Shown here: positions 670 to 707 of the stretch, piece after piece
Layout of the letters: every line of letters starts with the position of its first letter
How positions within the stretch are numbered: the stretch's first letter is position 1
Assembly: GCF_055900595.2 (NCBI RefSeq)
Contig: NZ_CM148325.1
Reading direction: 5' to 3' (one strand)
DNA length: 64,000 nucleotides
Notes under the pieces: model-generated
What the model was told of the DNA's origin: nothing
The model's input: only the letters and a program-made list of their open reading frames with translations
Databases searched by the model: none
Position numbers and translations under genes: made by a program

Positions 670-707
670 AACTGTCGATACGTACAGTATAGGATTTTTA
701 TACAGTG
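670..707 (-). promoter_or_regulatory. Two adjacent LexA (SOS) boxes upstream of ydjM
   Basis: AACTGTCGATACGTACAGTA at 670-689 (CTG-N10-CAG) and TATAGGATTTTTATACAGTG at 688-707; match SOS box pattern. Confidence 0.7.

Follow-up and report, generated by a model that had tools for sequence, protein, structure and literature searches.

The ydjM gene of Escherichia coli has been accepted as belonging to the SOS regulon since 2000, and reviews as well as comparative studies refer to its paired LexA sites. PMC4951493 credits Fernandez De Henestrosa et al. 2000 with the experimental report of tandem LexA sites at E. coli ydjM, and it also cites Gillor 2008 for the cooperative binding of LexA at colicin operators. 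A review counts ydjM among the SOS genes (PMC6590174), PMC4576408 gives as a LexA site of b1728 (the K-12 ydjM) the exact sequence of the element that we call box 2 below, and the heterology index published for the E. coli ydjM site is 9.0. In Salmonella, two SOS boxes have been described at 14 and 32 bp from the ydjM ATG, with HI values of 9.12 and 12.85, and the gene is induced 2.11-fold by nalidixic acid (PMC8072944). With regard to E. coli, RNA-seq found ydjM to be 2.5-fold up with AZT and, after AZT, to depend 8.6-fold on a cleavable LexA, as measured by comparing the wild type with lexA3 (PMC11228462), and a time course following ciprofloxacin saw the ydjM transcript rise by up to log2 2.6 (PMC11002266). 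Both the paired LexA operator and the damage-inducible control of ydjM are already known; here, we examine how one particular copy of this operator is built, how it compares with its orthologs and with other tandem LexA operators, and which readings of its architecture are best supported.

The stretch of DNA under analysis, hereafter the window, is 64,000 nucleotides long and starts with the ydjM–hxpB(yniC)–yniB–yniA region of E. coli. Its first 3 kb are matched in 5,423 of the 5,426 complete E. coli genomes. Over positions 1–3000, only 19 of these 5,423 genomes reach an identity of at least 99%, the others being 95–99% identical, which marks the window as belonging to a relatively uncommon lineage of E. 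coli. An annotation transferred from a 99.9% identical E. coli genome places ydjM and hxpB (yniC) on the minus strand, then yniB and yniA, an order that is also that of K-12, where ydjM (b1728) starts at position 1,810,211. The ydjM ATG occupies positions 655–653 of the minus strand, on which the two boxes are likewise to be read, and both boxes fall within the 162-bp spacer between hxpB and ydjM, downstream of the hxpB terminator (table 1). An Rfam scan of positions 1–3000 returned no RNA family, so that the palindromes lie outside any known RNA element. As for the product of the regulated gene, the first-pass annotation had presented it as a small inner membrane protein of unknown function; the unknown function is upheld, but the protein is neither very small nor wholly unclassified, since it counts 196 residues, matches the Pfam family YdjM (PF04307) with an E-value of 7e-36, and is labeled by PGAP as a metal-dependent hydrolase. 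Beyond yniA, PGAP names the homolog of K-12 ydiZ (L001, 3676–3966) a GhoS-type type V antitoxin endoribonuclease, a gene that has no relation to the LexA boxes.

Table 1. Features of the ydjM promoter region in the window, with positions on the window and strand.
Feature	Position	Strand	Remarks
ydjM CDS	65..655	-	196 aa, Pfam YdjM PF04307; regulated gene
LexA box 1 (proximal, stronger)	689..670	-	TACTGTACGTATCGACAGTT; perfect CTG-N10-CAG; ends 14 nt before the ydjM ATG
LexA box 2 (distal, weaker)	707..688	-	CACTGTATAAAAATCCTATA; ends 32 nt before the ydjM ATG
Candidate -10, TATACT	686..691	-	putative; straddles the box junction; 5/6 match to TATAAT; C at -13
Candidate weak -35, TTCCGT	709..714	-	putative; 17 bp upstream of TATACT; 2/6 match
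Conserved block GTTACAnCGTCAC	718..730	-	upstream of box 2; hardly varies among 77 unique upstream sequences and is retained in Erwinia and Pantoea
Promoter-like pair CTGAAT-17-ATTAAT	750..778	-	Escherichia-specific; if it functions, its start would be upstream of both boxes
Terminator-like hairpin after hxpB (yniC)	791..810	-	separates the upstream gene from the ydjM promoter region
hxpB (yniC) CDS	818..1486	-	

Read in the sense of ydjM, the operator is gtgCACTGTATAAAAATCCTATACTGTACGTATCGACAGTTtagtgagttttatcATG. Positions 670–707 correspond exactly to two 20-mers (38 bp in all), which have a TA in common (689–688) and whose centers are offset by 18 bp. The first-pass annotation had announced here two palindromes of the CTG-N10-CAG type, one perfect and one half-degenerate, within about 50 nt of the ydjM start, and this description proves accurate: both palindromes are present, and the far edge of the distal one stands 52 nt from the ATG. 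The perfect CTG-N10-CAG core of box 1 occupies positions 672–687, whereas box 2 matches the LexA motif through its left half only, this half being consensus-like (11.8 bits) when the right one is degenerate (0.6 bits) and carries CTA instead of CAG. The K-12 locus (L082) harbors 20-mers identical to these two, at the same distances from the ATG, and Fernandez De Henestrosa et al. 2000 is reported to list these very two sequences. From a lineage perspective, we also observed that both boxes are those of K-12 despite the uncommon ancestry of the window, the two strains differing by a few bases upstream of box 2, as in GTCACTAC (window) versus GTCACCAC (K-12).

To score these sites, we used a symmetrised LexA weight matrix derived from 18 published sites (PMC3009722, Table 4), ydjM not being among them. 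Such a scoring was the check that the first-pass annotation had put forward, and it came out positive for both: box 1 (14.5 bits) and box 2 (12.3 bits) rank first and second among the 63,981 positions of the window; both match the gammaproteobacterial LexA box, TACTG(TA)5CAGTA, above background. Taken alone, each score is moderately unlikely and neither is overwhelming: chance would supply about 0.18 sites of at least 14.5 bits and about 0.56 sites of at least 12.25 bits in 64 kb, and a score of 14.5 bits is attained in 10% of the shuffled windows. When each of the 18 training sites was left out in turn, their own scores ranged from 3.8 to 27.8 bits, with dinG at 12.5 and dinB at 13.1 bits, and both ydjM boxes stand at the weak end of real LexA sites. 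The bare pattern CTG-N10-CAG, for its part, occurs 25 times in the window when dinucleotide shuffles lead to expect 12.5 occurrences. This excess is probably attributable to codon usage (CTG and CAG), which makes the bare pattern a poor detector of LexA sites; the 24 matches other than box 1 have G+C-rich spacers. The third-best matrix match of the window, at 23510–23529 (9.9 bits), was set aside as a single good half-site of which about 1.6 are expected by chance; it is intergenic, between an ORF of 277 aa and an ORF of 792 aa, which by their position we take to be ydiA/ppsR and ppsA, respectively.

On the basis of such counts, one might suspect that the two boxes are mere chance palindromes of AT-rich intergenic DNA, devoid of any regulatory role, CTG-N10-CAG being so common in the window and a site as good as box 1 appearing in one shuffled window out of ten. 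However, the pairing of the boxes is of another order, as two sites of at least 12.25 bits within 40 bp of each other were found in none of 300 dinucleotide-preserving shuffles, and the distribution of the operator across orthologous loci likewise speaks against chance. To document the latter, a scan of one genome per species yielded 80 orthologous loci with 85–99% protein identity, from genera that include Escherichia, Citrobacter, Salmonella, Enterobacter, Lelliottia, Kosakonia, Leclercia, Raoultella, Phytobacter, Atlantibacter, and Cedecea; the addition of Klebsiella, Shimwellia, Pantoea, and Erwinia amylovora (the last at 66% identity) brought the set to 84 loci, which span more than 25 genera of Enterobacteriaceae and Erwiniaceae. 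Box 1 is found at all 84 loci, with scores of 11.1–21.5 bits (median 18.2). Its contacted triplets, CTG and CAG, are invariant throughout the set, and the spacer is free to change, variation being seen at positions 6, 8–10, and 13–14; judging from the aligned sequences, such a pattern of fixed triplets around a variable center is as expected of a LexA site. Most genera have a stronger box 1 than E. coli, a difference due to the E. coli spacer, ACGTATCG. In 80 of the 84 loci, a box 2 of 7.9 bits or more stands at precisely the 18-bp offset, and the median box 2 score across orthologs is 10.1 bits. Over the 38-bp operator as a whole, the major allele has a mean frequency of 0.93 and 42% of the columns do not vary, versus 0.64 and 5% at the third codon positions of the same genes. 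This conservation, far above that of synonymous sites, and the published LexA dependence of ydjM expression (PMC11228462) effectively refute the chance reading, to which we grant a negligible probability.

That LexA controls ydjM by way of two adjacent SOS boxes, as claimed by the first-pass annotation, is accordingly backed by sequence, comparative data, and literature alike. The repression had in addition been qualified as tight; of this, LexA control is borne out and the tightness is not, both sites being weak and induction amounting to about 2- to 9-fold. As regards the genomic surroundings of these orthologs, the upstream neighbor of ydjM in Klebsiella, Pantoea, and most other genera is a short-chain dehydrogenase gene of the adh_short family, and not hxpB as in Escherichia, and about 14 nt separate the end of the dehydrogenase gene from the conserved promoter block. 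The downstream neighbor, tcyP, which encodes a symporter of the SDF family, is itself conserved.

The asymmetry of box 2 gives some substance to another reading, namely that box 1 is the sole working LexA operator and that the ACTGTAT left half and the A-rich spacer of box 2 belong to the promoter, with no second dimer being bound. A right half worth 0.6 bits, with CTA for CAG, is what such a reading would predict, and four loci (L013, L025, L062, and L084) have box 2 lost or out of register and nonetheless retain box 1 and ydjM. Besides, ACTGT could serve as a −10 element for the conserved GTTACA located upstream, and RegPrecise, according to PMC4576408, has only one ydjM site. Against this, the left half of box 2 is retained in about 67 of 70 distinct sequences in the exact 18-bp register, and its score, the second of the window, resembles those of weak yet accepted sites, be it box 3 of recN (13.1 bits), dinG, or dinB. 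Moreover, the experimental report on E. coli ydjM concerns, according to PMC4951493, tandem sites, and two boxes were counted in Salmonella (PMC8072944). We consequently regard a single working operator as improbable.

Our preferred reading, in which we have strong confidence, is that 670–707 is the LexA operator of the ydjM promoter, composed of two SOS boxes that share a TA at an 18-bp offset. A clue as to where this promoter may lie comes from the junction of the boxes, where CCTATACT (684–693, minus strand) is invariant at 84 of 84 loci. Box 2 contributes its last six bases to this element, among them the two with which box 1 begins, and box 1 adds its bases 3–4. Three lineages whose box 2 has had its LexA-type left half destroyed or shifted keep the element unchanged: Citrobacter amalonaticus (L013), Intestinirhabdus (L025), and Pantoea (L084). 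Since CCTATACT remains invariant even without this left half, the non-consensus T and A of box 2 are under a constraint other than LexA binding. CCTATACT probably holds the −10 element of the promoter, which would account for one half of box 2 being non-consensus and yet fixed. The candidate −10, TATACT, would then be composed of the last four bases of box 2 followed by bases 3–4 of box 1, and the right half of box 2 would be kept as CCTATA for the sake of the promoter and not for that of LexA.

With this −10, transcription would start near position 679, inside box 1, and the boxes together would cover about −29 to +10: box 2 would take in the spacer plus bases 1–4 of the −10, and box 1 would extend from the last four bases of the −10 to about +10. 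Two bound dimers would, in such an arrangement, leave no part of the core promoter accessible. As long as the cell suffers no damage, LexA dimers seated on both boxes would exclude RNA polymerase from the core promoter, the occupancy of the weak box 2 being presumably aided by the neighboring dimer on box 1, an assumption that we make by analogy with other strong-plus-weak tandem LexA operators. Upon DNA damage, the self-cleavage of LexA stimulated by RecA would free the promoter and allow ydjM to be transcribed. The hairpin that box 1 can form was also considered as a terminator or attenuator, and this was rejected: its stem has 5 pairs, it is not flagged by the terminator scan, and the likely start of transcription falls inside it.

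CTTCCG, in the region of the candidate −35, is conserved in Enterobacteriaceae but not in Erwinia or Pantoea. A scan of positions 560–900 for sigma-70 consensus promoters retrieved no site at threshold, and we found no entry for a ydjM transcription start site in the genome-wide start-site and transcriptome data of Cappable-seq, the Streptomyces/E. coli maps, ROSE, and Conway 2014. Conservation is also high over the 30 nt upstream of box 2, with a major-allele frequency of 0.90 versus 0.64 at synonymous sites, and this segment contains the conserved block GTTACAnCGTCAC (table 1). The block may supply the −35 (GTTACA) to an alternative promoter with (T/C)ACTGT of box 2 as its −10, or it may be the site of a second factor. 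In such an alternative promoter, GTTACA (730–725) would be separated by 17 bp from CACTGT (707–702); GTTACA is invariant out to Erwinia, and neither L013 nor L025 retains the alternative −10 (TACTGT). In the non-Escherichia genera, TGTGACAAAGAGTTACA was considered as a CRP site and rejected by eye, the spacing of its half-sites being 7 and not 6, and the element being absent from Escherichia.

Farther upstream, the promoter-like pair CTGAAT-17-ATTAAT (778–750) opens the possibility that the boxes act in a different manner, mainly as a roadblock located downstream of a start site, where bound LexA would halt polymerases coming from this pair or reading through from hxpB. In K-12, the yniC>ydjM spacer is indeed bound by the RpoD holoenzyme in genomic SELEX, and CTGAAA-17-ATTAAT was the promoter proposed there (PMC3946193); the consensus scan, moreover, saw no strong promoter over the boxes themselves. 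Nevertheless, these upstream hexamers occur in Escherichia only, and most genera have a different upstream gene, whose end, about 14 nt before the conserved block, leaves no room for such a promoter. The elements that are conserved, TATACT and GTTACA, adjoin the boxes or sit inside them, and read-through has to contend with the terminator-like hairpin after hxpB. In light of these observations, we consider a roadblock to be an unlikely main function of the boxes.

Returning to an operator placed over its own promoter, the two conserved elements may be combined into a single scheme. CTATACT is a form of the −10 that is also favored by sigma-S. In this scheme, CCTATACT would be the −10 (CTATACT), the degenerate half of box 2 would owe its constancy to the promoter and not to LexA, and GTTACAnCGTCAC, at about −45, would be the site of a second regulator that offsets a poor −35, thereby placing ydjM under combined SOS and other control. 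We put forward this joint reading as a tentative possibility, somewhat doubtful as a whole. If it were true, a combined SOS and other control of ydjM would be previously undescribed. The invariant junction as a probable −10 and the conserved GTTACAnCGTCAC block are the two points that look new in this analysis, and both are minor.

Overall, the finding is of little import beyond confirmation, and it does not address the role that YdjM, as a membrane hydrolase-like protein, plays in the SOS response. What the comparison adds is that the 18-bp strong-plus-weak architecture is old, as it is common to Enterobacteriaceae and Erwiniaceae. Within this range, the ydjM gene of Salmonella enterica (STM14_1605; loci L031 and L047) displays the same two-box architecture as that of the window, with boxes of 19.6 and 12.5 bits versus 14.5 and 12.3 bits in E. 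coli, the higher Salmonella scores being mainly due to the spacer of box 1, ATGAATTG in place of ACGTATCG.

Beyond ydjM itself, we scored the operators of K-12 lexA, K-12 recN, and ColE1 cea with the same matrix. The operator of lexA is akin to that of ydjM in that two adjacent LexA boxes directly precede the start codon, but it differs in that its boxes (21.0 and 18.4 bits) are offset by 21 bp without overlapping and are both full palindromes. The colicin E1 gene, cea, comes closer, for immediately upstream of it a strong box (23.0 bits) and a weak one (14.6 bits) overlap by their ends; the colicin boxes are, however, much stronger than those of ydjM, and their offset is 15 bp rather than 18 bp, from which it follows that their helical phasing differs. 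The recN upstream region (L088, 1176–1295) harbors three boxes of 25.6, 17.6, and 13.1 bits, offset by 22 bp and then by 18 bp. Its boxes 2 and 3 resemble the ydjM pair in their 18-bp offset, in their shared TA, in the abutment of a strong site (17.6 bits) and a weak one (13.1 bits), and in the degeneracy of the inner half of the weak site. Unlike ydjM, recN counts one more box, a strong one that lies 22 bp farther upstream, and has its weak site downstream, whereas the weak site of ydjM is upstream and overlaps the putative −10. The occurrence of the same geometry in recN boxes 2/3 and in ydjM suggests that it is a recurrent operator geometry, and these comparative points could guide a simple dissection of the promoter. 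With boxes of 14.5 and 12.3 bits (orthologous medians of 18.2 and 10.1 bits) that overlap by a TA at an 18-bp offset, ydjM falls, on sequence grounds, within the known colicin or recN class of adjacent LexA operators, in which a strong box is paired with a weak one.
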